In this document: positions 3,370-55,361 of the stretch, one piece after another
Numbering within the stretch: position 1 is the stretch's first letter
Layout: every line of letters begins with the position of its first letter
Assembly (NCBI GenBank): GCA_051746985.1
Contig: JBNJFP010000003.1
Location: 52,018 to 116,017, forward strand
Length of the DNA: 64,000 nucleotides
Direction: 5' to 3'
Source of the DNA: Bacteroidota bacterium
GTDB taxonomy: Bacteria; Bacteroidota; Rhodothermia; Balneolales; Balneolaceae
Notes under the pieces: generated by a model
Told to the model about the DNA's origin: nothing
The model's database searches: none
The model's input: the letters and a program-made list of their open reading frames with translations, nothing else
Program-made: the position numbers and the translations under genes

Positions 3370-4752
3370 ATGAAGAACTATAAACTGCTGTTTGTTCTTG
3401 CGATTTTTTGTCTGTCATCAGCTGCAGCATATGCTCAGGGCGAAAATGAGTCGCCAAATGTAGTGATCATTTTAACAGATGATATGGGATATGCCGATGT
3501 AGGAGCCTATGGCGCTCCCAAGATTGAAACGCCTGAAATTGATGATTTGGCAAGTCAGGGGACAAAATTTACCGATTTTTATGTAGAAAGTCTTTGTTCT
3601 CCCACCCGGGCCGCGTTAATGACGGGCAGCTATGCACATCGTACTGGCAACTCGGGTGTTTACTGGCCTGATTCTGATGAAGGGTTAAATCCCGATGAAA
3701 TTACGATTGCAGAAATGCTAAATAATGAGGGCTATAACACCGGTATGGTTGGGAAATGGCATTTAGGACACCGTGACCTCTTCTTGCCAACCAACCAGGG
3801 TTTCGACTACTACTTTGGCCTTCCGTTTAGTAACGATATGGGTCCGGATGCACGACCGGCAAAGGGACCGTATGATCCATTGCCAGTTATGCGCAATGAA
3901 GAAGTGGTTGAACGCGGCCCTGACCAGAGTCAGTTAACCAAACGATATACCGAAGAAGCCGTTCAGTTTATTGAGGATAAAAAAGACGAAGACGACCCAT
4001 TTTTTCTTTATTTAGCCCACACCATGCCGCACGTTCCGCTGTATGCCAGTGAGGAATTCGAAGGAAAATCGGATTTTGGGTTGTATGGCGATGTGATAGA
4101 AGAAATTGACTGGAGCACCGGACAGGTAATGGATGCCTTAGAGGAAGCTGGCGTTAAAGATAATACGTTGGTTGTTTTTCTTTCGGATAACGGTCCCTGG
4201 CTGCAGAAAGGAAAAGATGGTGGTCTGGCAACTCCGCTTCGCAATGGAAAAGGCACAAGCTGGGAGGGCGGACATCGGGTTCCCGCAATTATGAGTTTGC
4301 CCGGTGAAATCCCTGAAAATTCAACAATTAAAGAGATGGCTACCGTAATGGATTTGTTTCCGACATTAGCCCATTTGACAGGAGCTGATACCCCCGAAGA
4401 CCGGGTAATTGATGGAAAAAATATTTGGCCGCTTCTGACCGGCGAATCCGAAGAAACACCTCATGAAGTTTATTTTTACTATCGCTTAAAAAAGTTACAG
4501 GCAGTGCGTATTGGGGACTGGAAGCTTCATCTTGAAGGAAAAAGAAGAGACTATAATAACGTGAATTATGATTATTCCAAGGATTTCGTTTTCGAACAGG
4601 ATGAAGAGTTATATAACCTCGCGGAAGATGTTGGGGAACAACGGAATTTGGCTAAGGATTATCCAGAAATTGTAGAAAAACTTAAAAACGCCGTTAAGGA
4701 ACACAAAAAGGAGATTAAGAAAAATTCACGTCCTGAGGGTTCTGTAGAGTAA
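3370..4752 (+). CDS. arylsulfatase-family sulfatase (formylglycine-dependent)
   Basis: Signal peptide, N-terminal metal site LTDDMGYAD and formylglycine motif CSPTRAALMTG (C-x-P-x-R) are all present. Confidence 0.9.
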   Translation: MKNYKLLFVLAIFCLSSAAAYAQGENESPNVVIILTDDMGYADVGAYGAPKIETPEIDDLASQGTKFTDFYVESLCSPTRAALMTGSYAHRTGNSGVYWPDSDEGLNPDEITIAEMLNNEGYNTGMVGKWHLGHRDLFLPTNQGFDYYFGLPFSNDMGPDARPAKGPYDPLPVMRNEEVVERGPDQSQLTKRYTEEAVQFIEDKKDEDDPFFLYLAHTMPHVPLYASEEFEGKSDFGLYGDVIEEIDWSTGQVMDALEEAGVKDNTLVVFLSDNGPWLQKGKDGGLATPLRNGKGTSWEGGHRVPAIMSLPGEIPENSTIKEMATVMDLFPTLAHLTGADTPEDRVIDGKNIWPLLTGESEETPHEVYFYYRLKKLQAVRIGDWKLHLEGKRRDYNNVNYDYSKDFVFEQDEELYNLAEDVGEQRNLAKDYPEIVEKLKNAVKEHKKEIKKNSRPEGSVE

Positions 4753-9115: not shown

Positions 9116-9222
9116 CTGCCAGTTTGGGAACACAGCGGATTCAAATCCGTTGACATACTAAAAAACTGGAAATTAAGTTTATAACACCGGGCAGTCGTTC
9201 GCATTAAAACTTGTGTCAATTT

Positions 9223-16040: not shown

Positions 16041-16526
16041 ATGAAAGAGATAACAACGGAACGAGAATTGTATCTGGAGTTGATTCAGGATATGTATCAT
16101 GCGGAAGTGTTGTTGATTCCGGAATTGCGATTATTTATTGAGAAATCTTCTTCAGAGACGTTAAAGAATCACGTGCAGAACCATCTTAAAAATTCGCGTT
16201 TGCATGTCACCCGGCTGGAAGAAATTCAGGAGAACTTGAATGCGGAATTCATGGAAGAGCATTGCAGAACGATGAAATCGATGATTCTGGAAACCAAAGA
16301 GCTTGTGGAGCGGTGTTCTGGAAATAAACTGACAGATCGGGCTATCGCTGCATCTTTGCACCGTATTACACAATGTCAGATTACGGTATATCAGATGCTG
16401 TTATCGATGGCAGATGAACTGAATTTTCGCGGCCATAAAAAAATATTGCAAGAATTATTAGAGGATGAACAAGTATTTGATCATGTGATGGGTGCAAGCG
16501 GATCGAAACGAAAAGTACAAGCATAA
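16041..16526 (+). CDS. DUF892 (YciE/YciF-like) ferritin-like stress protein
   Basis: About 160-aa helical protein. The N-terminus L..DMYHAE and overall pattern fit the DUF892 family. ATG 16041 is preferred over the TTG at 16035. Confidence 0.65.
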   Translation: MKEITTERELYLELIQDMYHAEVLLIPELRLFIEKSSSETLKNHVQNHLKNSRLHVTRLEEIQENLNAEFMEEHCRTMKSMILETKELVERCSGNKLTDRAIAASLHRITQCQITVYQMLLSMADELNFRGHKKILQELLEDEQVFDHVMGASGSKRKVQA

Positions 16527-16781
16527 CTTGTAAGAAAAAGTTCTACACCTGCATACATAAAGACCTTACGTTACACCAGCAATTAGCATATTATATTAAT
16601 TATAGATTTTAAGAGAGAGTAATTGACATACTGAAATTTACACGCTTTCGGGTTTTGCTACGGCAGTTCTCGAAAGAGACCTAAAAATTACCTGTAGGTT
16701 TCTATTGGGTTATCCGATAGGATTATCGAATAGTGTGTAACAGGGCCATTTGTCGGCATCTGAAAAGTGCCGGCATTCAAA

Positions 16782-16883
16782 GCCAGTGAGTAAGGGTGTC
16801 CTGTTAAAGGGACTGAGATCATACCTTCTGAACTTGAATCGGGTTATGCCGACGAAAGGAACATCACTGGCTTTTTTATTTTT
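16782..16883 (+). ncRNA. TPP riboswitch aptamer (THI element) with P1 directly followed by a U-tract; no downstream ORF
   Basis: GCCAGUGA..GGGUGUCCUGUUAAAGGGACUGAGAUCAUACCUU..ACUUGAAUCGGGUUAUGCCGACGAAAGGAA..UCACUGGC then UUUUUUAUUUUU. The CUGAGA and AUGCC..CGAAAGGAA cores and the P1-P5 pairings are all identifiable by eye. Confidence 0.8.
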
Positions 16884-16891
16884 AATCTCAA

Positions 16892-17644
16892 TTAGTGTAC
16901 CGTATATCCACCGTCAACCGCCAGGGTTTGTCCTGTAATAAAAGAGGCTTTGTCCGAGCAGAGCCAGACGACGGCTTCTGCTACTTCTTCGGGACGGCCA
17001 AACCGCCCCATGGGATGTGCCGCGATGAGGTCTTTGCGTTCTTGGCTATGACTGCCCACAAACCGGTCAATCATTGACGTTTGAATGGCACCCGGACACA
17101 CGGCGTTTACACGGATTCCCTGCTCGGCATATTCCAGGGCTGCTGTTTTCGTAAGTCCGTTAATGCCGTGCTTGCTGGACACGTAGGCCGGGATGCCCGA
17201 AAATCCCAGTAGTCCTGCAACAGAAGAAACGTTAACAATGGCCCCGCCGGAATGTTTAAGCATTTCCGGGATCTGGTATTTTATACAGAGCCAAGTGCCC
17301 CGAAGGTTGATATCCATGACCCGCGACCAGTTTTCGGCAGAGCACTCCGGCGTAAACGCTTGGTCACCTTCAATGCCAGCATTATTGCACGCATAATTCA
17401 GCTGGCCAAAACGGTCGATCGTTCCCTCGATAAGTGATTTAACCTGGCTTTCTTGACTGATATCTACTTCGAGGGCCAACCCTTTTTCTCCCGACTTTTT
17501 AATGAGCTCAAGGGTTTCTTTTGCTGACTCAAGATTTTTGTCAGCGACAACGACAAAAGCCCCGTGCACGGCAAAAAGTTCGGCCGTTGCTCTTCCGATA
17601 CCTGCTCCAGCGCCTGTAACTAACGCTACTTTTCCTTTCATCAT
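16892..17644 (-). CDS. short-chain dehydrogenase/reductase (SDR)
   Basis: TGAGAGIG Rossmann motif, NNAG, and catalytic S...YVSSK. Confidence 0.9.
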   Translation of the reverse strand: MMKGKVALVTGAGAGIGRATAELFAVHGAFVVVADKNLESAKETLELIKKSGEKGLALEVDISQESQVKSLIEGTIDRFGQLNYACNNAGIEGDQAFTPECSAENWSRVMDINLRGTWLCIKYQIPEMLKHSGGAIVNVSSVAGLLGFSGIPAYVSSKHGINGLTKTAALEYAEQGIRVNAVCPGAIQTSMIDRFVGSHSQERKDLIAAHPMGRFGRPEEVAEAVVWLCSDKASFITGQTLAVDGGYTVH

Positions 17645-20001: not shown

Positions 20002-20253
20002 TCATCCACTTTCTGTAGCTGATCTACTCAAAAATTCCTTAATACTTTTTAACGTCCTTAGTTTCCCATAGTCCTCCTCCGGAATTTCAACCTGAAGTTC
20101 CTCGCTGATACCAACCATCATGTTGTAAAAGTCCATAGAGTCAATATCAAGCGTCGGACCTAATTCCTCGTCGGCTTTTAACTGATCAAGATCGGCTTCC
20201 GGGGCAACGCGATGCAGGTGCTTTTTGATGATTGTATCAATGTCGGTGTTCAT
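20002..20253 (-). CDS. acyl carrier protein-like (phosphopantetheine-binding) protein
   Basis: 83-aa acidic four-helix pattern with a Ser attachment context LDIDSMDF. Its start overlaps the E2 stop by 4 nt (ATGA). Confidence 0.7.
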   Translation of the reverse strand: MNTDIDTIIKKHLHRVAPEADLDQLKADEELGPTLDIDSMDFYNMMVGISEELQVEIPEEDYGKLRTLKSIKEFLSRSATESG

Positions 20254-21467
20254 AAATCTTCAGGGTGTTGCAGTTGAGCGTTTAATTTTTCGAGAAATCG
20301 GGATCCCGTATGTCCGTCAGTAGCGCGATGATCTCCGGCCAGTACTACAGAGAGTGTTGGACGAATTCCAATAGAACCATCAACGGCTCGGGTCCGATCG
20401 GTAATTTTCCCAAAGCCAAGTAAAGCTACTTGTGGTGGATAAATAACGCCATACACTTTTTCAGCGCCGCGTTCGCCCAAGCTGGTAATGGTGATTGTGG
20501 CACTGCTAATTTCCCGGCTCTTAAGGTGTCCCTCACGCGCCCGGGTTACCATATCTACAAAATCACTGCGAATTTCATCTAAGGATTTGAGATCAGCATC
20601 CAAAATGGCTGGAATTACCAGTCCGCCTTGACGCAGTGAAACCGCAAAACCTACGTGGATGCCCTCCTCGATATGCATCGCCTCATCCGTCCAGAAGCCA
20701 TTCAGTTCCGGCACTTCGGTCAGCGCATTGGCCACAGCTTTGATCAGCAGCATGGGTGGCAGCAGGCGTTTATCTACCGGTCGGTTTTTATTTTCATCAC
20801 TAAGCCATTCAAGTGCCGCCTTCATGTCAATATCTGTTTCCAGGTAGTAGTGCGGGATTTCTTTATTGGATTTAGACATGGCAGCGGCAATTGATTGACG
20901 CATGCTTTTGCCCTCGGCTTTTGATACATGCTCAGCCATATCCAATTCTTTTTCAAAAGTTTCGTCTGCGGTTTTTTGCTGAGCAAATGCCTCCACATCT
21001 TTGCGATGAATAGTGCCGCCCGATCCGCTGCCTGTTACCTTTTTGAGGTCAATATTTAAATCTTCTGCTACCCGTCTTGCTAAAGGGGATGCCTTTGGTC
21101 GTTGTTTGAGGGTCTCTCTTTTTTCTATTGCCGGCTTCTTGGTTATAACTTCCTGCTCACCTTCGCTCCGAACTTCTTTCTTTTTTTCTTTCGGTGTTTC
21201 AGACGGTTTTACTTCGACTTCTTCGGCTTTTCCTTTGCCATTAATGACGGCCATCACCGAACCAACGGGTACAACTTCCCCTTCTTGAGCCACCAACTCC
21301 GTAATCACGCCATCCTCAAACACTTCGACATCGATCAGACCCTTCTCGGTATCAATTTCCCCGATAATATCTCCTTTTTTTACCGTGTCGCCCGGTTGCA
21401 CGTGCCACTGAATAAGTTTAGCCTCGATCATCTGTGATCCCAGGCTCGGCATGATGAACTTACCCAT
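20250..21467 (-). CDS. 2-oxoacid dehydrogenase E2 (dihydrolipoamide acyltransferase)
   Basis: N-terminal lipoyl domain ([11 protein letters not shown]), a linker, a subunit-binding domain ([15 protein letters not shown]) and a catalytic domain with DHRATDG. ATG 21467 overlaps the E1-beta stop (ATGGGTAA). Confidence 0.9.
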
Positions 21468-22458
21468 GGAGACCTCCCATCTTTTGAATGGATTTAATGA
21501 TTTGTTCGGGTTGTGGCAATGAAGCCTGTTCGAGGTGTTTGGCATAGGGCGCCGGCACTTCCATCCCGCAAATGCGCTCGACCGGTGCATCTAAATCATA
21601 GAACAATTCCTCGGTAATACGGGCACTGAGTTCGGCCGAAATGCCCCCGCTTTTCCATCCTTCATCGACAATAACGGCGCGACCCGTTTTGGTTACGGAT
21701 GCCAAAATCGTTTCACTATCGAGCGGACGCAGCACGCGGAGATCAACCACCTCAGCATCAATATCTTCTTCGGATAATTTTTCGGCCGCTTTGAGTGATT
21801 TCTGGAGGCCGATTCCATACGTCAAAATGCTCACGTCATTTCCTTCGCGACGCACTTTGGCTTTTTGAATATCTACGGCTTGCCCATTGCCGGGCAGCGG
21901 ACCTTCTGAGTTATATAACGTAGAATTTTCGAAAATGAGTACCGGATCGGGGTCTTCCAAAGCTGGCCATAGCATGCCGCGGGCATCTTCGATCGTGGCG
22001 GGCGTTAAAATTTTGAGTCCCGGTATGTGCGCGTACCAACCCTCGAGACTTCGAGAGTGTTGGGCTGCCAGTTGTTTACCACCACCCGTGGCCATCCGAA
22101 TGACAATGGGCACGGTAAACTGTCCGCCAGACATATACTGCAAAATGGCCGCCGTATTGATAATTTGATCCGCTGCCAACAGGCTAAAATTCACGGTCAT
22201 AATTTCTACGATAGGACGCATGCCCGCCACCGCCGCTCCGATGCCGCAGCCGGTAAAGCCCGATTCCGATAGAGGCGTGTCAATGATGCGTTGATCCCCG
22301 AATTCTTCCAACATGCCCTCGCTGACATTGAAGCAGCCTCCGTACAATCCTACGTCTTCGCCCATCAGAAATACGCGGTCGTCTTTTAACATGGCCTCCC
22401 GCATCGCTTCCCGAACGGCTTGACGATAAGTAATAGTTTGTTCTGCAACTTGTGGCAT
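21460..22458 (-). CDS. 2-oxoacid (pyruvate/acetoin-type) dehydrogenase E1 beta subunit
   Basis: 332 aa. The N-terminus [24 protein letters not shown] and the transketolase-like pyrimidine-binding and C-terminal domains are typical. Confidence 0.9.
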
Positions 22459-22461
22459 AAT

Positions 22462-23475
22462 TTATTCTCCTGTAAGGTTGCTGTAAACGTATTTGGTGAT
22501 ATCTTCGATAGGTTCATCCGTCCCATTTTCGGCAAACTGCACCGATGCTTCGACCTCTTCAGTTACCTGCTTATTTAACTGATCCAATTCTTTATCATTT
22601 AATAGACCCTCTTCCTTCAAGTAATCAGCATAAGTTGTAATGGGATCTTTTTTCTTCCACTCTTTTATTTCTTGTTTAGATCGATATCGCTCCGGATCAA
22701 ACATAGAATGTGCCCGGTAACGATAGGTCTGGCACTCCAAAAAATAGGGTTTCTTTTTTTTGCGGATGTGTTTTGTAGCTTTGTCCGAGGCCTTTAATAC
22801 AGCCTTAATGTCCATGCCATCTACGCTATCGGCCTCCATGTTATAGGCTTTTGCTTTCTTCACCAGGTTTGTTTCAGCCTCGGCCAGCTCAAAGGGCATA
22901 CCCATCGAATAGAGGTTGTTTTCACAGACAAAGAGGACTGGCAGATCCCAGAGCGAAGCCAGGTTTAATGACTCGTGGAATTCGCCTTCATCGACCGCAC
23001 CTTCGCCAAAAAAGCAACAGGCCAAGGCATCCTTGTTCTGACGTTTGTAAGCCATAGCGACGCCCACAGCCATTGGCAAACCGTTGCCAACAATCGCCGA
23101 TCCGCCCAAAAAGTTGGTGGCCTTATCATAAAGGTGCATCGAGCCACCGCGTCCCCCACTGCATCCTTCGGCCTTGCCGTATAGCTCTGCCATGATGCTT
23201 TCCATCGACACGCCGCGAATTAGTGCATGTCCATGCTCACGATAAGTGGCTATAACCGCATCTTCTGTTCTGAGATTTTCAATTACGCCTACTGCAACGG
23301 CTTCTTCGCCATCATAGAGGTGTAAAAAGCCACGGATTTTTTCCTGGGTGTAAAACTCATAGGCTTTTTCCTCGAGCTGACGAATACGCATCATCTGTTT
23401 AAGCAGATGCAGATTTTCATCTTTTTCTGTCTTCGACTTCTTTTTTAAAGTCGCACTTTTCTTCTTGGTCGCCAT
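22462..23475 (-). CDS. 2-oxoacid dehydrogenase E1 alpha subunit (TPP-dependent)
   Basis: FLHLYDGEEAV, the TPP-binding GDGA-like region FFGEGAVDEGEFHESLN..NN, and YRYRAHS. ATG 23475 (MATKKK) is chosen because the longer track start would overlap the upstream gene. Confidence 0.9.
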   Translation of the reverse strand: MATKKKSATLKKKSKTEKDENLHLLKQMMRIRQLEEKAYEFYTQEKIRGFLHLYDGEEAVAVGVIENLRTEDAVIATYREHGHALIRGVSMESIMAELYGKAEGCSGGRGGSMHLYDKATNFLGGSAIVGNGLPMAVGVAMAYKRQNKDALACCFFGEGAVDEGEFHESLNLASLWDLPVLFVCENNLYSMGMPFELAEAETNLVKKAKAYNMEADSVDGMDIKAVLKASDKATKHIRKKKKPYFLECQTYRYRAHSMFDPERYRSKQEIKEWKKKDPITTYADYLKEEGLLNDKELDQLNKQVTEEVEASVQFAENGTDEPIEDITKYVYSNLTGE

Positions 23476-23488
23476 AATTTGATCTGTT

Positions 23489-25231
23489 TTAGGATGATGT
23501 TTTTTCAACCTTTTCGCGTTCCTGATCCCGCAGCAATCTCCGCATGATTTTTCCACTACGTGTTTTGGGCAGTTCGTCGATAAATTCGATTTCTTTGGGC
23601 GCTACCGCTGAACCCAATCGCTCGCGGGCAAATCCTTTAAGTTCCAGGTTGAGCTCTTCGCTCGGTTCAAAACGCTCTTTCAATGTGATAAAAGATTTGA
23701 CCAGTTCACCCATCACGGGATCCGGTTTCCCGATTACCGCTGCTTCGGCTACCGCCTCGTGCTCCATCAAAATACTTTCCACCTCGAACGGACCCACCAT
23801 GTGTCCGGCCGTTTTGATGATGTCGTCCGCCCGCCCGACAAACCAGAAATACCCATCTTCATCCCGGCTGGCCAGATCTCCGGTCAGATACCAATCACCT
23901 ACAAAGCATTGCTGGTAGCGCTCCTCGTCATCGAGGTAGCCTCGAAACATTGAGGGCCATCCTTTCTTTAGCGCCAGGTGACCTGATTCACCCGTCTCAG
24001 CAAATTTTATATCGTCTCCTCCGTTCTCATCATAATCTAAAATTTCAGCTTCAACGCCGGGTAGCGGTTTACCCATTGATCCCGGCTTGACCGGCATAGA
24101 GGGATAGTTGGCAATCATGATGCCGCCCGTCTCGGTTTGCCACCAGTTGTCGAGGATCGGCATGTCCAGCATTTTTTGAGCCCATCGCACGGCTTCGGGA
24201 TTCAGCGGTTCGCCCACGCTGTGAATCAGTCGCAGGGCACCTAAATCATATTCTTTGCGAATATCAATATTCATGCGCATTAGTCGTCGAATGGCCGTTG
24301 GAGCTGTGTACCAAATACTGACTTTTTGTTCTTCCAGCGTCTGATACCATAATCGAGCGTCAAACTCCGCTTCGACTACCAGGTTGGTAATGCCATGCAT
24401 TAATGGAGATAATATCCCATACGAAGTTCCGGTCACCCATCCCGGATCGGCGGTGCACCAGAAGATGTCATCGGAGTGGAAATCCAGCACATATTTACCG
24501 GTAATAAAATGGGTTAGCGCTGCTTCGTGGACATGAATCACGCCCTTCGGCATGCCGGTGGTTCCGCTGGTGAAATGCAACAGCGCCCGGTCTTCGGGGG
24601 ACGTTTCAGTAATAACGAAATCAGAGCTGGCCTCCATCATCAATCGCTGGAAAGAGCGCACATTCTCGGATTGGTGATCAGTAATGTCAGTGAGTAATAC
24701 ATATTGTAGATGATCCAAACGATCTAAAAGCCCAGATATCTTTTTATCGAAAAGTGATTTTGTGGTTACTAAAATTTTGGCTTTTCCCTTGCTTAGTCGC
24801 TGGTAAATGGGTTCGGGACCGTAAATTGAAAAAAGCGGACAGTAAATGCTTCCATTTTTCAGGGTGCCCAGTGCTGAAATGTACAACTCGGGAATACGTC
24901 CGGTAAGGGTACAGACGACATCGCCTTTTTGAAGGCCTAAGTTTTGCAAAACATTGGCAAAGCGATTGGTCTGTTCCTTTAGCTCATGATAGGTGAACTC
25001 TTTACTGTTTCCCTGATTCCCAATCCAGTGCAATGCCACTTTCCCTTCTTGGATGTTATCCGCATGACGATCAATCGCCAAGTAGGCCATATTAAATCCC
25101 TTTTTGCCGGAAGATTTTACTAGCTCTTCTTTAACCTGATCCCATCGAAAAGAAGCGTATTCTTTATCGTAGTTACTCATATTAGGATTAGGTCGCCTAA
25201 GAAATTGTTCGGTCAGATCTTTTCGAGACAT
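23489..25231 (-). CDS. AMP-forming acyl-CoA synthetase (AcsA/acetate-CoA ligase-like)
   Basis: AMP-binding motifs LHFTSGTTGMPKG, WQTETGG, YLTGD and KTRSGKIMRR. ATG 25231 is preferred over the TTG at 25276. Confidence 0.85.
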   Translation of the reverse strand: MSRKDLTEQFLRRPNPNMSNYDKEYASFRWDQVKEELVKSSGKKGFNMAYLAIDRHADNIQEGKVALHWIGNQGNSKEFTYHELKEQTNRFANVLQNLGLQKGDVVCTLTGRIPELYISALGTLKNGSIYCPLFSIYGPEPIYQRLSKGKAKILVTTKSLFDKKISGLLDRLDHLQYVLLTDITDHQSENVRSFQRLMMEASSDFVITETSPEDRALLHFTSGTTGMPKGVIHVHEAALTHFITGKYVLDFHSDDIFWCTADPGWVTGTSYGILSPLMHGITNLVVEAEFDARLWYQTLEEQKVSIWYTAPTAIRRLMRMNIDIRKEYDLGALRLIHSVGEPLNPEAVRWAQKMLDMPILDNWWQTETGGIMIANYPSMPVKPGSMGKPLPGVEAEILDYDENGGDDIKFAETGESGHLALKKGWPSMFRGYLDDEERYQQCFVGDWYLTGDLASRDEDGYFWFVGRADDIIKTAGHMVGPFEVESILMEHEAVAEAAVIGKPDPVMGELVKSFITLKERFEPSEELNLELKGFARERLGSAVAPKEIEFIDELPKTRSGKIMRRLLRDQEREKVEKTSS

Positions 25232-31622: not shown

Positions 31623-32441
31623 CTATTGTTTGAGGATACTATGCCTTTGTCTTTCTTCTACATATTTTTCTGCAGGGATGTTGAGAAACGGTACCGTAGT
31701 CTTGTATCCGATCCGACTACCGTGATCTCTTTCAATAATTTTTTGGAAAAGCGTTTTTTTGTAGCGGGTCAGAACTAACAGCTTGGGGGTGTGCGTTTTT
31801 AAATATTTAAAAAATCCTTCTTCGAAAGAGGAATTAAAAACCCGTTCAAAAGATAGCTTGTCGTATTCCAGACGCTCTTTTAAGATTTCCTTGAATCCGC
31901 GGAATTTTATCAGTTCCTGGAGGGAATCATCGGTAAATAGATGCAGTACATGCAGGTTGGCATTAAAATGTCTGGCCCAATCGGATATTTCTTTTGATGC
32001 AGATAAATCTCCTTCGTTAAAATCGGTCATAAATACAATATTCTCAAAATCCGAATAGATACTATCTTGTGGAACGGCAAGTACTGGGATGTCGGATTTT
32101 GAAATGACTTTTGATGTTGTACTTCCCAACAGTTTTCTACCACCAGAACTGCCTTTATTTCCCATGACAATAAGGTCCGCCTTAATATCTTGGGCCTGCC
32201 TCAGTATTGACACATCGGGATCGCCGATTTCACTAATGATTTGGCTTTCAATTTCTTTAAATCGGTTATCACTTGTTAATTGCTCGAAATGTTTATCTAA
32301 TGTAAATGAGAATGAACTTGTCATCGAGTGCATTACATAAAGACGAGCCTTAAGATTTATGGCTAATTCAAGGGCAAAGGAAATGGCTGTTTTTGAACAA
32401 TCAGAAAAGTCAGTTGGGACTAGTATATTTTTAATATTCAT
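31623..32441 (-). CDS. universal stress protein, tandem Usp domains
   Basis: N-terminus ILVPTDFSDCS, ATP-binding-type motif GNKGSSGGRKLLGSTTSKV, and a second Usp-like half. It lies 8 nt upstream of the MgtC-like gene. Confidence 0.85.
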   Translation of the reverse strand: MNIKNILVPTDFSDCSKTAISFALELAINLKARLYVMHSMTSSFSFTLDKHFEQLTSDNRFKEIESQIISEIGDPDVSILRQAQDIKADLIVMGNKGSSGGRKLLGSTTSKVISKSDIPVLAVPQDSIYSDFENIVFMTDFNEGDLSASKEISDWARHFNANLHVLHLFTDDSLQELIKFRGFKEILKERLEYDKLSFERVFNSSFEEGFFKYLKTHTPKLLVLTRYKKTLFQKIIERDHGSRIGYKTTVPFLNIPAEKYVEERQRHSILKQ

Positions 32442-32510
32442 GTTGCTGTGTTTATGAAGAACTATTTGTTTGGCCTCCTATAAGTTAGGGTGATAATTTC
32501 TTTTTATATG

Positions 32511-32525
32511 TAGGTCATTTGCTTA
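32511..32525. promoter_or_regulatory. candidate operator, TAGGrA-N3-TyCyTA family
   Basis: aTG TAGGTCATTTGCTTA lies 70-84 nt upstream of the USP ATG. Confidence 0.3.
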
Positions 32526-32829
32526 AATATCGTATTTCGAAACGTATGGAAATCTACTGCTGATCCTATTTAGCAAAGAGTGTTACAAGGTAGGTGAAAA
32601 TTCTACATGAGATAGGCAGTAGAGCCCTACAATTTACCAGCCCAATGTTGGTTATAATAGGTATAGAAATTTGACATACTGTTTTTGCACAGTCTCTATG
32701 GGGTGCTACGGCATTTCATGAGATAAACCCAAACTATTCCGCGGGTTTCTTTTTGTGATCTACCCAATTTGGGAAGTGCAAAAAGTGTGCAACGGTATTT
32801 TGTTGGTGCCTTGATCGGTACTGGCAAAC

Positions 32830-32930
32830 AAGCTGACGGTTGAGGGTGTCTCTTAAGTGAGACTGAGATTATACCTCCATAACTTGACCTGGATAATTCC
32901 GGCGAAAGGAAACCGTTAGCTTTTTTTTAT
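32830..32930 (+). ncRNA. TPP riboswitch aptamer (THI element) with a 12-bp P1 directly followed by a U-tract; no downstream ORF
   Basis: AAGCUGACGGUU GAGGGUGUCUCUUAAGUGAGACUGAGAUUAUACCUCC..ACUUGACCUGGAUAAUUCCGGCGAAAGGAA ACCGUUAGCUU then UUUUUUUAU. P3 is GUCUC/GAGAC and the CUGAGA core is present. Confidence 0.8.
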
Positions 32931-33068
32931 TTCTGATCTTTTCGGCCTACCTCTGTATGCAATATTTACGAAGTATGTTTAAACAATACGCGCTGTAAAA
33001 ATTAGGAATAAAGGCTTAAATCCAGTTATTGGATTAGAAGCATTAGAGGAAGGAGTTTTTAGCACAAT

Positions 33069-33109
33069 AAAAAAAGGGAATCACGACTTATTATTTGACG
33101 CAATTCCCC
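33069..33109 (-). terminator. intrinsic terminator of hsp20
   Basis: On the - strand, GGGAAT..N..ATTCCC is followed by TTTTTTT, about 20 nt after the hsp20 stop. Confidence 0.55.
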
Positions 33110-33129
33110 TGTAATTTAGAATGGTTACT

Positions 33130-33585
33130 TTAGTCGATCTTAACAGATTGCCGTTTACTTTTTTCGGCTTTTGGGATATGAACAGTCAGGACCCCGTCTT
33201 TAAATGTCGCCTTGATTTTATCTTCTTTCACACTTGCTGGAAGCGAGAATTTGCGTTCAAATGAACCGAAAGAACGTTCACGTCGAAGATATCCGTTGTG
33301 TTCTTCTTCGGTTTCGTGTTTTCGTTCTCCTTGAATTGAGAGAATATTGTCCTGAACGTTGAGTGTAATGTCTTGTTTTGACATTCCGGGTAGGTCGACT
33401 TCGATCATATATTCGTTGTCGGTTTCCATCATGTCTGTTCGAGGTGCCCAGGATCGCAATCCCATTTCTGAATCATCAAGTCGCCAGCTGAACGGAATTA
33501 GATCATTAAAAATGCGGTCCATTTCGCGACGAAGATTGTTAATGGGTTCCACAGAGGGGCGATCATATTTTGTTAATGGAGTCAT
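33130..33585 (-). CDS. Hsp20/alpha-crystallin small heat-shock protein
   Basis: Alpha-crystallin domain with the C-terminal motif ATFKDGVLTVHIPK. 151 aa. Confidence 0.9.
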   Translation of the reverse strand: MTPLTKYDRPSVEPINNLRREMDRIFNDLIPFSWRLDDSEMGLRSWAPRTDMMETDNEYMIEVDLPGMSKQDITLNVQDNILSIQGERKHETEEEHNGYLRRERSFGSFERKFSLPASVKEDKIKATFKDGVLTVHIPKAEKSKRQSVKID

Positions 33586-33710
33586 AATTTTTGTCTCATT
33601 TATTTTATTGTTACAAATGTTTGTTAACCATCAAGAATCTAAGTGATAAAAGGTTTTATAAGTATGGTATTAGTCACCAGTTAGGCATAGTAAAAAGAAG
33701 GATTGGCCTT

Positions 33711-33725
33711 TAGGAATTCTCCCTA
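33711..33725. promoter_or_regulatory. candidate operator, perfect TAGGrA-N3-TyCyTA palindrome
   Basis: TAGGAATTCTCCCTA lies 126-140 nt upstream of the hsp20 ATG. Confidence 0.5.
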
Positions 33726-33778
33726 CAGTACACTGCTATGAATTTTAAGAGGCCAATTTTTCCTAATAAAATATGAGG

Positions 33779-35506
33779 CTATTTCTGAATTTCTACAGGC
33801 TCCGCTTGCTGTCCATTGCCAGTATTAACCAATCCCAATTGAAACTCATCCATGGGTTTGTGGTAATCATAAGGCCCATGAACGACCACGGGGATATGAT
33901 CGAAATTATGCGGTGGGGCGGGCGAAGATATTTGCCACTCTAATCCTCTGCTTCCCCAAGGGTTTGCCGGTGCCTTTTTACTATTGAATAAGGAGGCGAT
34001 TAAGTAATAGATAACAAGCAACAAGCCAATGCCAAGGATGTAGGCGCCTACAGTTGAAAGCTGATGAAATCCCTGGAATTCATCTATATAATTGAAATAA
34101 CGTCTTGGCATGCCGAGTATTCCCATCGCAAATTGCGGGAGAAAGGTTACGTTAAATCCAATGAATATGATAAAGCAGGCAATTTTAGCCTGTATTTCGT
34201 TAAACATTTTACCCGTCATCTTGGGCCACCAGTAATGTAAGCCGCCTAAAAATGCCATCAACATTCCACCTACCATCGTAAAATGAAAATGGGCAACTAC
34301 GTAGTAGGTATCGTGCAGATGAACATTTAATGGGATGGTAGCAAGCGCAATTCCGGTAAACCCGCCAACCAGAAAAAGAAAGAAAAAACCAAATATATAC
34401 AGCAGCGGAGATTTTAGATCAATGGAGCCTTTATATAGGGTGGCTGTCCAGTTAAACATTTTAATGCCTGTGGGGATGCCAACCAGAAATGTTAAGAATG
34501 AAAATACCATCCCAGCGAGAGGCGATTGACCGGATACAAACATATGATGTCCCCATACAAGGAAACTAATAAAAGCAATGGCCAGTGATGAAAGTGCTAT
34601 GGCCCAGTAGCCGAAAATATGTTTTCTTGCGAAAGTGGTAACGACTTCAGAAACAATTCCAAAACCGGGGACGATCATAATATAAACGGCGGGGTGACTG
34701 TAGAACCAGAAAAAGTGCTGGTAGAGCACGGGATCGCCTCCGAGGGCCGGATCAAAAATACCAATTCCAAGGATTCGCTCCATGGCCACCAGCGCCAGGG
34801 TAATGGCAAGCACAGGAGTTGCTAATATCTGCATGACACTTGTCGCATAAAGGGCCCAGCAAAATAACGGTAGTTTATCCCAGGTGAGGCCGGGCGCCCG
34901 CATTTTATGAATGGATGTAATGAAATTTACGCCCGTGAGAATAGAAGAGAACCCAATCACAAAAATACCGAAAACGACAAGGGTAACGCCCCCAGCTGTG
35001 GTTGAAGAGTAGGGCAGATAAAAAGTCCAGCCAGTATCTACTCCTCCGCCAATTATTCCAAAAAGCATAATGCCAGCACCTATTAACAAAATATAGTAAC
35101 TGGCTAAGTTCAGCCGGGGAAATGCCAGATCTTTTGCTCCCAACTGGATGGGCAGGATAAAATTTCCCATCACAGTGGGTACCGAAGGAATAAGAAAGAG
35201 GAAAATCATTACGGCCCCGTGCAGGGTAAAAAGCTGGTTGTATGTGTTCGCTTCGATAAAGGTTTTGGCGGGGGTCCAAAGTTCGGTGCGAATTAGCAGC
35301 GCCAGAATGCCCCCGACGATAAAAAAGATTGTAATAGTGACGAGGTAGAGGATGCCAATTCTTTTATGGTCTAAGGTGGTCAGCCAGGACCAGATTCCCT
35401 TTTCGGTATTTATGTAGTGCTCTTTGGGATCAGGATCGGGTTTATATCTTTTTACGCTTACTTTTTTTGCAGGAGAAGCTGGTATAGTCCCCGTAGAATT
35501 TGTCAT
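33779..35506 (-). CDS. ctaD: heme-copper (cytochrome c) oxidase subunit I, A2-type
   Basis: 12 or more TM segments. CuB/heme ligands are [17 protein letters not shown] (YS motif with no helix-VI Glu) and WGHHMF. No subunit II or III gene lies adjacent. Confidence 0.9.
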
Positions 35507-36682: not shown

Positions 36683-39409
36683 ATGGATGTAATGTCAGCG
36701 AAAACCCAATCATCAAGCGAGATACAAAAGACGGAACGCTTATGGTACATCTTAGCTGAAGATGAAGTGTGCAAGAATTTAAAAACTTCTGCCACGAAGG
36801 GATTAAGTAAAGAGGAAGCCCAAAGGCGGTTCGTACAATTTGGTCCGAATGAAATTGAAAAAGAGGTTGGGTTGAGTCGTTGGCAGATCCTGCTTCATCA
36901 GTTTAAGGATCCGCTGATTTATATTCTTGTCGCCGCCGCTTTTGTAACACTGATACTGCAGGACTATATCGATTCTGCCGTAATAACCGCCGTCGTATTA
37001 CTGAACGCTTTAATTGGATATATCCAGGAAAACAAGGCCCAAAAGGCTATTCAATCACTTTCCAAGCTGTCGGATCCGCGTGTGAAAGTCCTTCGAGAGG
37101 GACATGAGATGGAGATCCCCAGTCGTAGTCTTGTACCCGGTGATATTGTGCTGCTTAGCTCCGGGGCACGCGTGGCCGCCGATATGCGTCTTCTTAAAAT
37201 AAAGACACTCGATGTTGATGAGTCGGCTCTTACCGGTGAGTCAACGGTGATCAGAAAGCAGGTATCCGCGTTGGAGACAGAAGGATTGGTTCCGGCCGAT
37301 CAGAATAATATGGTATTTGCAGGCACCATTATTTCCCGGGGACGTGCTAAAGCGGTGGTAGTCCGCACCGGGGGATCCACCGAACTCGGAAAGATTGCGA
37401 CAACGGTAAGGGATATCGGGGAAAGCAAAACGCCACTGCAGGAAAAAGTAGATAAGCTGGGTACGTTTATCGGTTATGTCATTATGGGTTTTGCTGTCAT
37501 AATTACCGCTATAGGAATTCTGTACCAGATGGATCCGTCCGAAATTTTTATCACAGTCGTTGCTATGGCAGTCTCAGCTATCCCCGAAGGCTTGCCGGTA
37601 GTGCTCACCGTAACACTGGCTATAGGGGTGCAAAAGATGGCCAATCGACGAGCTATCATCCGTTCCTTGCCGGCGGTAGAAACACTGGGCAGTACCACGG
37701 TGATCGGATCGGACAAGACGGGCACGCTCACCAAGAACCAAATGACGGTACGACAGATATGGGCAGATAATACGCTATATCAAACTACCGAAGCGGGTTA
37801 CCAACTTGAGGGATCTATTGTGATGGCTGATTCCAAGGTTTTGCCCAAGCCGAATAACGGCCTTTATAATACGCTGTTAGCAGGTACATTAGCCAACGAA
37901 GTAAACGTTGAGAGCGTGGAATCCGGAGAGCCTCAGGGAGATCCCACCGAAATAGCACTGCACGTGTCTGCCTATAAAGGAGGCATTCGGCTATCAGAAA
38001 TACGACTCTCCATGCAAGAGTTAGATCAGTTGCCGTTTGAACCCGAGAGAAAGTTCATGGGCACATTGAATGATACCGGCGAACGAAAAATCATTTTTTT
38101 AAAAGGAGCGCCCGAGGTCATTCTTGATAAATGTAGTCGAATATTAGTTGAAGGAGAAGAAGCGCCTATTGATCGCGGGTTGGTTCGATCTGCTGCCACA
38201 AAAATGGCGAAAGATGGACTGCGGGTACTTGCGATGGCATATCGTACGACAAACATCGATGATTTAGATGATCCCTCACTCTTTGCCGAGGATTTTACCT
38301 TCGCCGGATTGCAGGGCATGGAAGATCCTATTCGTCCCGAGGTAGTAGAAGCTGTTGAGAAAGTTCATCAATCAGGAATCAAAGTAATTATGATTACCGG
38401 GGACCATCTTGAAACGGCCGTTGCTATCGGACGGCAGTTGGGATTGGATGCCAATAAGGGGGCACTGGAGGGGATTTTTATTGATCAGCTTTCGGATGAG
38501 GAGCTGGACCAAAGGCTCAGGGATTGTAATATATTTGCTAGGGTTACGCCCGAGCATAAATTTCGTATCGTAAATCGACTTAAAAGTGCCGGAGAAGTGG
38601 TGGCGGTAACCGGCGATGGCATTAATGATGCGCCGGCGTTGCAGGCGGCACATCTGGGTATTGCCATGGGGAAGAGCGGTACTGACGTCGCTCGCGAAGC
38701 ATCGGATATGGTTCTTTCGGATGATAATTTTGCGACCATAACATCGGCTATTGAGGAAGGAAGGATCGTTTTTTCAAACATCCGAAAGGTCACTTTTTTT
38801 CTTTTATCAACCGCCGTGGGTGAGCTGATCGTGATTTTTGCGGCGGTACTGATGAATTGGCCGCTGCCGTTTATCGCGGTGCAGATACTTTGGATTAATT
38901 TGGTAACCAACGGCCTACAAGATATTGCCCTGGCTTTTGAACCGGGAGAGCCGGGCATCATCAGGCGAAAACCACGTCCACCCGATGAGGGCATTCTCAC
39001 TACCCGATTGATTGAGCGGCTGGGTGGAGTCGGAATGGTACTGGCGGCAGGAACGCTGGCCACGTTTTGGTGGACGTATAATCAGTATGATAATTTAGAA
39101 ATAGCACAAACCGCAGCAATGACACAAATGGTTGTGTTTCAGTTTTTCCATGTGTTCAACTGCCGCTCTCTGGATCGAAGTATTTTCCGCATTAATTTCT
39201 TTTCAAATAAATTCCTGTTCATCAGTGTGATAGCTGCGTTGGTTGCTCATTTGGGGGTGTTGCACATTGGATTTATGCAGACCATTTTCCGAACGGTACC
39301 GCTTAGTATTGAACAGTGGCTTGGAATTGTATTAGTGGGAGTGCTGGTTGTCATCGGTGGTGAAATTGATAAAATAGTTAATATCCGCCGCAAAAATTTT
39401 ATTGGGTGA
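36683..39409 (+). CDS. P-type cation-transporting ATPase (P2A/SERCA-like, CtpF-like)
   Basis: LTGES actuator motif, DKTGTLT phosphorylation site, TGDGINDAPAL hinge and 10 TM segments. 908 aa. Confidence 0.9.
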   Translation: MDVMSAKTQSSSEIQKTERLWYILAEDEVCKNLKTSATKGLSKEEAQRRFVQFGPNEIEKEVGLSRWQILLHQFKDPLIYILVAAAFVTLILQDYIDSAVITAVVLLNALIGYIQENKAQKAIQSLSKLSDPRVKVLREGHEMEIPSRSLVPGDIVLLSSGARVAADMRLLKIKTLDVDESALTGESTVIRKQVSALETEGLVPADQNNMVFAGTIISRGRAKAVVVRTGGSTELGKIATTVRDIGESKTPLQEKVDKLGTFIGYVIMGFAVIITAIGILYQMDPSEIFITVVAMAVSAIPEGLPVVLTVTLAIGVQKMANRRAIIRSLPAVETLGSTTVIGSDKTGTLTKNQMTVRQIWADNTLYQTTEAGYQLEGSIVMADSKVLPKPNNGLYNTLLAGTLANEVNVESVESGEPQGDPTEIALHVSAYKGGIRLSEIRLSMQELDQLPFEPERKFMGTLNDTGERKIIFLKGAPEVILDKCSRILVEGEEAPIDRGLVRSAATKMAKDGLRVLAMAYRTTNIDDLDDPSLFAEDFTFAGLQGMEDPIRPEVVEAVEKVHQSGIKVIMITGDHLETAVAIGRQLGLDANKGALEGIFIDQLSDEELDQRLRDCNIFARVTPEHKFRIVNRLKSAGEVVAVTGDGINDAPALQAAHLGIAMGKSGTDVAREASDMVLSDDNFATITSAIEEGRIVFSNIRKVTFFLLSTAVGELIVIFAAVLMNWPLPFIAVQILWINLVTNGLQDIALAFEPGEPGIIRRKPRPPDEGILTTRLIERLGGVGMVLAAGTLATFWWTYNQYDNLEIAQTAAMTQMVVFQFFHVFNCRSLDRSIFRINFFSNKFLFISVIAALVAHLGVLHIGFMQTIFRTVPLSIEQWLGIVLVGVLVVIGGEIDKIVNIRRKNFIG

Positions 39410-54805: not shown

Positions 54806-54938
54806 CGGAGGATAATAATGCGGAGAAAAAGAAAATCTATCTAGAGAAAAACGAAAATGTACCTTTTAAGATGAGTGTGCCGCGATACTTTATCGGGGTA
54901 AGCTGATCGCGCTAACTTTAGCTAAAAAGATTAAGTTG

Positions 54939-55361
54939 ATGGATTCAGACACCACAAAAATGTTGCCCCATACTGCTGATGTAGCATTGTTAATTACTTC
55001 CGAGACTCTTCCCGGTTTGTTTCGGTTGGGTTTGCAGAGTTTAAATAATTTACTAAAGCCGGATTATGCTCCAAAAATGAATGAGGCAAAGGTTACGGAA
55101 GTCATCGAATTGAAATCGCCGGATAGAACCACCTTGCTTATTGATTTTCTTTCGGAAGTATTGACGCTGAGTCAAATACACAAGGCCATATTTTCTGACT
55201 TTGATATCAACAGAATGACTGACTGCGAGCTGTCAGCTACCCTTTCAGGGAAGAAAGTTGACTTATTTGATGAGGATGTCAAAGCGGTAACGTATCACGA
55301 AGCTAATATGTCATTGAATGAGGATGGCGATTGGCAAACAAAAATTATTTTTGATATTTGA
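54939..55361 (+). CDS. archease-family protein
   Basis: N-terminus LPHTADVAL, VKAVTYHEANM and the C-terminal IIFDI are typical archease landmarks. There is no rtcB in the window. Confidence 0.75.
   Translation: MDSDTTKMLPHTADVALLITSETLPGLFRLGLQSLNNLLKPDYAPKMNEAKVTEVIELKSPDRTTLLIDFLSEVLTLSQIHKAIFSDFDINRMTDCELSATLSGKKVDLFDEDVKAVTYHEANMSLNEDGDWQTKIIFDI

Follow-up and report, generated by a model that had tools for sequence, protein, structure and literature searches.

A short RNA element in a stretch of Balneolaceae DNA ends in a genuine thiamine pyrophosphate (TPP) aptamer, whose closing helix P1 runs straight into a U tract, and begins with a domain that covariation shows to be a structured four-way junction. 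The stretch analysed here, referred to as the window, comprises 64,000 nucleotides (nt) of a Bacteroidota bacterium (assembly GCA_051746985.1, contig JBNJFP010000003.1, positions 52,018 to 116,017). The element, which we call copy 2, has one paralog in the window (copy 1) and relatives at other loci, numbered with an L. With about even confidence, we interpret it as a modular stress-island RNA in which the TPP aptamer would work as a ligand-gated terminator; the same module would be an OFF-type attenuator in relatives and stands without a cargo gene here. An earlier note on this DNA had described copy 2 as an orphan TPP-aptamer element pointing into hsp20. The parts of the two copies are the following.

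32663-32932, + strand: predicted RNA of copy 2, about 265 nt, with a predicted 5' end
32663-32684, + strand: predicted 5' tail of the RNA, including TTGACATACTG at 32671-32681; the family consensus is UUGAnAUnnUGA
32685-32792, + strand: four-way-junction domain, from single-sequence folds and covariance-model alignment
32800-32827, + strand: linker hairpin (UUGUUGGUGCC / GGUACUGGCAA), from the minimum-free-energy (MFE) fold
32830-32922, + strand: TPP aptamer with P1 (RF00059)
32921-32932, + strand: T tract (T8, A, TTT) leaving P1 directly, read from the sequence; resembles an intrinsic terminator together with P1
16620-16880, + strand: copy 1, the paralog, with the same modules and convergent with an SDR gene (16892-17644, - strand)

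The TPP aptamer and its terminator-like end

A scan of the whole window against Rfam gave exactly two matches above the gathering score, both of them TPP aptamers on the + strand. Copy 2 scores 67.6 bits against RF00059 (32832-32927, +; E = 4e-11) and copy 1 scores 61.1 bits (16782-16877, +), compared with a gathering score of 54.3 bits, and the aptamer of copy 2 is genuine, as the earlier note had proposed. Scores of the relatives range from 50 to 70 bits, with 61-70 bits for members whose P1 leads into a U tract and 50-53 bits for clades B and C and L004. The conserved TPP core is present, that is, the pyrimidine-sensor CUGAGA, the ACC...GA junction and the pyrophosphate-sensor GCG.A.GG strand; the ligand-contacting nucleotides of TPP aptamers are assigned from thiM structures. 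When 13 family aptamers were aligned, CUGAGA, AACUUG and CG.AAG were invariant, and compensatory changes were found in 16 of the 24 predicted pairs of P1-P5. By this measure, selection acts on the aptamer. By sequence and structure, the 3' module of the family is a member of RF00059.

P1 of copy 2 pairs AAGCUGACGGUU (32830-32841) with AACCGUUAGCUU (32911-32922) through 12 pairs, one of them G-U, exactly as had been read before. A U8 tract had also been placed after P1; the T8 exists (32921-32928), but its first two T lie inside P1, which leaves six U past the helix, followed by A and UUU. Because this 12-bp helix runs straight into the U tract, the aptamer itself would be the terminator stem. 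P1 is long across the whole family (11-14 bp), and two types of 3' end are present. The U tract follows P1 without a break in copy 1 and its orthologs (including L005), copy 2, L022, L023, L025 and L029, while clades B and C, L004 and L028 have a separate strong hairpin terminator 20-35 nt further on; that of clade B is bidirectional and common to the RNA and hsp20.

A homologous linker hairpin with the conserved 5' strand UUUGUCGG was found in copy 1, L005, L022, L023, L025 and L029. In clade A, the 5' strand of this hairpin (UUUGUCGGCA) is complementary to the P5 3' strand together with the pyrophosphate-sensor strand (UGCCGACGAA), which corresponds to 16744-16762 and 16848-16860 in copy 1 and is seen in L005 as well. 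The resulting duplexes have computed energies of -18.3 kcal/mol in copy 1 and -12.5 kcal/mol in L005 (p < 0.002 and p = 0.006 against shuffles), and they represent a candidate anti-aptamer helix. As a general expression platform this helix was rejected, since copy 1 and L005 alone reach significance, whereas copy 2, L028 and L004 do not.

The 5' four-way-junction domain

The 5' part of the RNA contains the following helices, all on the + strand.

32685-32691 with 32786-32792: closing helix Pa
32692-32724: H1, with a UACG tetraloop at 32707-32710
32725-32748: H2, with a conserved 12-nt A-rich loop at 32731-32742
32749-32785: H3
32737-32741 with 32793-32797: candidate pseudoknot, in which UUCCG on the 3' side of the H2 loop would pair with CGGUA immediately after Pa

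As judged from covariation, the 5' ~125 nt is a structured four-way junction. Single-sequence folds of nine members were multi-branched in all cases and gave the same four-helix junction in eight, the MFE fold of copy 2 differing in H3. In a covariance-model alignment of 16 distinct sequences (A6), which was fitted to the structure so that its pairing and covariation figures are somewhat inflated, 91.3% of cells are paired, and compensation is seen in 32 of 36 pairs. These values were not reached in any of 500 shuffles, and sliding the 3' partners by 1-3 columns left 38-47% pairing. We consider the helices secure because the effect size is large and the single-sequence folds agree. The covariance model was used in place of MAFFT and RNAalifold, which misaligned the helices over all clades and returned almost no structure. 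Many G-U pairs of the domain are compatible with the + strand alone.

The two copies in the window share one layout, a multi-branched 5' domain followed by a hairpin and an aptamer closed by P1, and folding against shuffled controls gave z = -5.5 for copy 2 and -4.5 for copy 1. From TTGACATACTG to the T tract they measure 260 nt (copy 2) and 258 nt (copy 1), in line with the common architecture and length that had been claimed for them. Their identity is 65% in the 5' domain, which had been estimated by eye at roughly 60% in the 5' half, 56% in the linker, 69% in the aptamer and 66% overall. The earlier note took this divergence as a sign of selection on an RNA and not of a duplication scar, a view that the covariation and conservation of the 5' domain in relatives upholds.

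The H2-loop pseudoknot is paired in 81% of cells, compared with 20-50% in slid controls, and it shows compensation, CCG:CGG changing to CUG:CAG in clade A and to CCU:AGG in L028. Support for it is moderate because the helix was picked after the sequences had been inspected; we conclude that the domain probably carries it. Against Rfam 15, the 5' domain had no match at E <= 10 in 32500-33000, and in the copy 1 region (16450-16950) the only match besides TPP was a chance snoRNA match of 13.6 bits. The 5' domain is a candidate for a new class of structured RNA. A small open reading frame (ORF) in the 5' region was considered and dropped, copy 2 having only a 7-codon ORF and copy 1 none. Separately, L004 has three self-complementary GGUUAAC(C) copies after the four-way junction (3405-3440), where two mutually exclusive hairpins are possible, and clade B has a single GGUUAACC at this place.

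Relatives of the RNA

Relatives were sought by an exact-pattern scan for TTGACATACTG-N16-28-TGCTACGGCA over species-representative genomes and then metagenomes. The spread of the family is underestimated because both scans required the exact 21-nt motif. Three true matches came from the species-representative genomes, all in Balneolaceae, namely a Fodinibius metagenome-assembled genome (MAG) with a near-exact version of copy 1 (L002), an Aliifodinibius MAG (L005) and a Balneolaceae MAG (L004). Nine more contigs came from the metagenomes. The clade B contigs carry a second, more diverged copy, recovered by profile search, which lacks TTGACATACTG. Further members were reached through neighbouring genes: L022 and L023 via hsp20 homologs, L025, L026 and L028 via homologs of the L022 cpn60, and L029 and L030 via another cpn60 homolog. 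In these scans, the family was seen only in Balneolaceae genomes and metagenome contigs, that is, in salt-loving bacteria.

A covariance model of the 16 distinct members (R2) detected no further copies in the 305 kb searched first, nor in L029/L030. Five other hsp20 loci of Fodinibius and Gracilimonas (L018-L021 and L024) are without the element, and their hsp20 stands in a different context with a kinase and a response regulator. The nearest relatives of copy 2 are L022 and L025, with 78% and 73% identity. At least two lineages have a pair of paralogs in each genome. At L028, nothing related was found in the region upstream of cpn60; the same contig, which belongs to the same MAG as L002, has a third paralog at 1241-1565, after a DksA/TraR gene, with its own terminator and facing a convergent 97-aa ORF. 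Because of this third paralog, the organism of the window may also carry more than two copies.

Genomic contexts and modularity

Copy 2 is surrounded by genes on the opposite strand.

31623-32441, - strand: USP gene (Pfam)
33130-33585, - strand: hsp20 (Pfam HSP20), convergent to copy 2 and with its own palindromic site at about 33709-33727
33779-35506, - strand: COX1 gene (Pfam)

The strand of USP and hsp20 agrees with the earlier description, and the antisense read-through into hsp20 and ctaD that had been anticipated is possible as far as orientation goes. The next + strand gene starts at 36683, past three - strand genes. Copy 2 can be called an orphan in that no same-strand ORF lies before this point; the term does not extend to its closest relatives, which carry the module upstream of cpn60 or an mgtE-like operon. 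A same-strand gene placed so that the expression platform would control it was found in L022, L025 and L029, and none for copy 2 in the window. In L022, AAGGAG and the ATG of the Cpn60 gene lie 20 nt past the U tract. In L025, an MgtE/CBS ORF opens at the U tract and is followed by PRTase, cpn60 and cheB-like genes.

The two structured parts also occur apart. In L029/L030 (5840-6003), two independent assemblies from different sources, the linker hairpin and aptamer/terminator stand directly before cpn60, which is GroEL-like and without groES, and the 5' domain is absent. Conversely, L026 (107-249) has the 5' domain without the aptamer, about 65 nt before the RNA-repair genes archease-rtcB, whose operon also includes, further on, DksA, PRTase and cpn60; the archease gene of the window (54936-55361) has no 5' domain there. 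Since each part is found alone, the modules are separable and each is able to sit in a leader.

In the remaining loci, the gene after the RNA is convergent. It is an SDR gene for copy 1, L005 and L023, hsp20 for copy 2 and clade B, a small GlsB-like gene for clade C, MMPL for L004 and the 97-aa ORF for L028. The U tract and the SDR stop codon are 12 nt apart (16878-16895 in copy 1), and P1 of the copy 1 aptamer is probably a bidirectional terminator for the RNA and SDR transcription units.

Comparison with L022 indicates how the locus may be organised. Homology with the window covers the operator, promoter and RNA (32587-32912) and resumes over hsp20 (33069-33700); between the two blocks L022 has 2.6 kb with cpn60 and a 176-aa gene, compared with 156 nt in the window. 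As a convergent hsp20 gene or fragment stands at the far end in copy 2, clade B, L022 and L025, the locus looks like an RNA, optional cargo genes and a convergent hsp20. Clade B is deeply diverged and is also without cargo. Because copy 2 is fully intact and clade B is cargo-less as well, the gene-less state is either old or well tolerated, and for copy 2 it does not look like decay.

Predicted promoter, 5' tail and palindromic operator-like site

Upstream of the RNA, two elements were recognised.

32625-32658, + strand: promoter-like region, CCCTACA box at 32625-32631, 21 nt, TATAAT at 32653-32658; the start is predicted
32589-32607, strand not applicable: palindromic operator-like site GGTAGGTGAAAATTCTACA, one mismatch from TGTAGG-N7-YCTACA

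The motif TTGACATACTG is exact at 32671 and 16623, in both copies of the window, and its TTGACA had been taken for a promoter -35 box. This assignment was dropped, as no member has a -10 hexamer 17 nt downstream. A conserved TATAAT-like box sits 12-18 nt upstream of TTGACATACTG (32653-32658 in copy 2), and for this reason the motif is probably a transcribed 5' tail and not a promoter. In most of the members that were read, a (C)TTACA/CTACA box, about 20 nt and TATAnT lie upstream, and this spacing is like that of Bacteroidota -33/-7 promoters. The tail is kept as UUGA...UGA in members found without the pattern (clade C, L022, L023 and L025) and is one base off in each of L026 and L028; among the pattern-found members, its invariance is an ascertainment effect. 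Pairing of the tail with AGUGUG or CGGU was considered and dropped, being unsupported once L004 and clade C were included. A near-match, TTGACATACTA at 9150, has no domain downstream.

In copy 1, L002, L005, L022, L023, L025 and L028, the palindrome likewise precedes the RNA start, at a distance of about 65-85 nt. With the regular expression TGTA[AG]G-N7-YCTA, seven sites were found in the window, all intergenic, where shuffles gave a mean of 1.3 and a maximum of 5. These sites are at 16529, 25334, 29489, 33727, 39454, 47093 and 52779, and 32589 is additional to them. They lie upstream of copy 1, hsp20 and a flavodoxin gene, near two DksA/TraR-like genes and in two further divergent promoter regions. 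The island also contains USP, MgtC/DUF4010, DUF892, P-type ATPase and archease genes.

From this distribution, the palindrome probably serves as operator to a stress regulon or a dormancy-like one, and the island resembles, by analogy, a DosR-type dormancy regulon. In relatives, genes for a PAS-HisKA_3 kinase and a LuxR/NarL-type response regulator adjoin hsp20, and the latter is a candidate regulator of the palindrome. Because the palindrome is common to hsp20, flavodoxin and DksA/TraR-like genes, the RNA would be co-regulated with the stress island.

Proposed mechanism and alternatives

In the interpretation that we favour, the RNA would be transcribed independently and built from three modules: a promoter with the palindromic operator common to the neighbouring stress genes, the four-way-junction 5' domain, probably with its pseudoknot, and the linker hairpin leading to the TPP aptamer, whose 12-bp P1 enters the U tract. 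Binding of TPP (with Mg2+) would compact the aptamer and close P1, so that polymerase would terminate and release the ~265-nt RNA. If the aptamer were not folded in time, polymerase would read through. In the closest relatives, read-through would drive cpn60 or mgtE-PRTase-cpn60, which start about 10-25 nt past the U tract, and the module would be an OFF-type transcription attenuator. Copy 2 would have two outputs, the terminated RNA and, at low ligand, antisense transcription toward the 3' end of hsp20; an activity of the RNA once released is likewise inferred.

Several observations weigh against attenuation as the full explanation. The separate strong terminators of clades B and C, L004 and L028 are followed by a convergent gene; with a dedicated terminator in four lineages, read-through cannot be the output there, the released RNA must matter, and the attenuator model is not the whole story. 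P1 with its 12 bp may be stable enough to terminate with or without ligand. A competing anti-aptamer helix could not be demonstrated in copy 2 (p = 0.47), clade A alone being significant. Neither is there a link to thiamine biosynthesis, salvage or transport: by Pfam, the neighbours are USP, Hsp20, COX1, MgtC, SDR, MMPL and DUF892, with Cpn60 or MgtE in relatives, no member found has an associated thiamine gene, and the model gives no physiological reason for sensing TPP here. Taken together, the dedicated terminators, the long P1, the missing alternative helix and the missing thiamine link suggest that the free RNA is probably functional in its own right, through its 5' domain.

This brings in a different account, in which the element acts primarily in trans as a small RNA, or else by binding protein. 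The 5' domain and tail would be the effector, the aptamer would be a structured 3' end that sets the stability or conformation of the RNA according to TPP, and co-transcription of downstream genes would be secondary. Such an RNA would fit the convergent downstream gene in six of nine genomic contexts, the evolution of a dedicated strong terminator after the aptamer in four lineages, the paralog pairs in the genomes of at least two lineages with a third locus in the MAG of L002, a P1 that at 11-14 bp family-wide is unlike a strand-exchange switch, and a conservation of the 5' domain that is deeper than any downstream context. We nevertheless rate it as somewhat unlikely, since no target complementarity or protein partner was identified and since the modules also stand separately in front of genes (L026 and L029), as cis-acting leaders behave. 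A dedicated antisense or transcriptional-interference regulator of hsp20, in which low TPP would allow read-through to collide or pair with the hsp20 transcript, is quite improbable. The RNA does face a convergent hsp20 in copy 2, clade B, L022 and L025, the two units share the operator, and from 32932 to the hsp20 stop codon the + strand is free of strong terminators. However, the bidirectional terminator of clade B stands between RNA and hsp20, cargo genes separate them in L022 and L025, the other paralogs face unrelated genes (SDR, MMPL, GlsB-like and the 97-aa ORF), and the 5' domain is left unexplained.

Copy 2 could also be the decaying relic of a cpn60 leader, functionless now that its cargo has been deleted. 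In L022, cpn60 and the 176-aa gene occupy precisely the place of the 156 nt in the window, where no cpn60 remnant was found at any position. We consider this very improbable: all modules of copy 2 are intact, with a P1 of 12 pairs, one of the highest Rfam scores of the family (67.6 bits) and z = -5.5; the gene-less state facing hsp20 recurs in the deeply diverged clade B with its own terminator; and copy 1 and its orthologs likewise lack a gene, in species no more than 67-86% identical. More speculative, and in our judgement unlikely, is a two-sensor stress regulator. In such a system, a stress signal would be perceived by the 5' domain, either as a new class of aptamer or as an element that binds a protein or RNA polymerase, and the TPP-type aptamer would report metabolic state; jointly they would control, in cis, genes for chaperonin and Mg-transporter-like proteins and act as a free RNA where cargo is lacking. 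The state reported may be TPP·Mg2+, or thiamine triphosphate or adenosine thiamine triphosphate, and not vitamin homeostasis. Thiamine triphosphate and adenosine thiamine triphosphate are existing thiamine-derived compounds with a link to stress, and we know of no cellular receptor for either of them.

Comparison with known riboswitches

No riboswitch class is more widespread than the TPP riboswitches, whose dedicated role is taken to be the control of thiamine genes. The aptamers of L022, L025 and L029 resemble them (RF00059) in lying in a 5' leader with a terminator, in the manner of an OFF switch. The family differs in three respects. Its members stand beside chaperonin, Mg-transporter-like, Hsp20 and USP stress genes or beside no gene; its platform is the aptamer's own 11-14-bp P1 with a U tract, without a separate terminator/antiterminator pair; and in most members the aptamer is fused behind the 125-nt domain without an Rfam match. 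It is unexpected for a TPP-type aptamer to be tied to stress-island loci of the chaperonin, Mg-transporter-like and small-heat-shock kinds, to use its P1 as a terminator and to persist as the 3' end of a gene-less RNA in several lineages. Full-text literature searches returned no description of this RNA, of Balneolaceae riboswitches or of a link between a TPP riboswitch and a chaperonin gene, and a TPP-type riboswitch in front of a chaperonin gene (L029/L030) appears to be undescribed.

Some riboswitches reportedly control non-coding RNAs, such as the B12 riboswitches with the AspocR antisense RNA and with Rli55/EutX, and the SAM (S-adenosylmethionine) riboswitches SreA/SreB act in trans. As in these systems, the aptamer here governs or forms part of a non-coding transcript, with a possible antisense output onto a convergent gene. 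They have the aptamer at the 5' side and the effector downstream, whereas in this family the effector-like domain is 5' and the aptamer forms the 3' end; the ligand class also differs. In other riboswitch classes, altered ligand specificity has been recognised through unusual gene associations of this kind, and by analogy the TPP-type aptamer of this family may have an altered specificity too. If the ligand is TPP, B1 or energy status would be linked to proteostasis genes; if the specificity has shifted, a new signalling ligand would be identified. Natural variants with both domains, the aptamer alone or the 5' domain alone, with and without a cargo gene, offer a ready experimental series.

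The aptamer of the hydroxymethylpyrimidine pyrophosphate (HMP-PP; thiS-motif) riboswitch is likewise an intrinsic terminator with a ligand from thiamine metabolism (eLife 2019, PMC6478431). It reportedly lies within a small terminator hairpin, and its ligand is reported to turn a thiamine gene ON. In the present family, by comparison, the terminator stem encloses a full TPP aptamer, and the ligand is predicted to turn OFF genes other than thiamine genes. In tandem two-input riboswitches, for example guanine/phosphoribosyl pyrophosphate and TPP/HMP-PP, serial structured domains also feed one terminator and occur separately as well (PMC9481103). The upstream domain of our family is no known aptamer and is recognised from structure and covariation. 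Tandem arrangements involving TPP in the review are TPP/TPP and TPP/HMP-PP only, and some RNAs classed as TPP riboswitches prefer thiamin or thiamin monophosphate (PMC9481103).

TPP-related genes

One TPP-related protein context was seen in all, an operon for a TPP-dependent 2-oxoacid dehydrogenase (E1 alpha, E1 beta and E2). It lies in the same island of the window at 20250-23556 (- strand), and in L004 (4489-7961) it is directly upstream of the RNA on the same strand.

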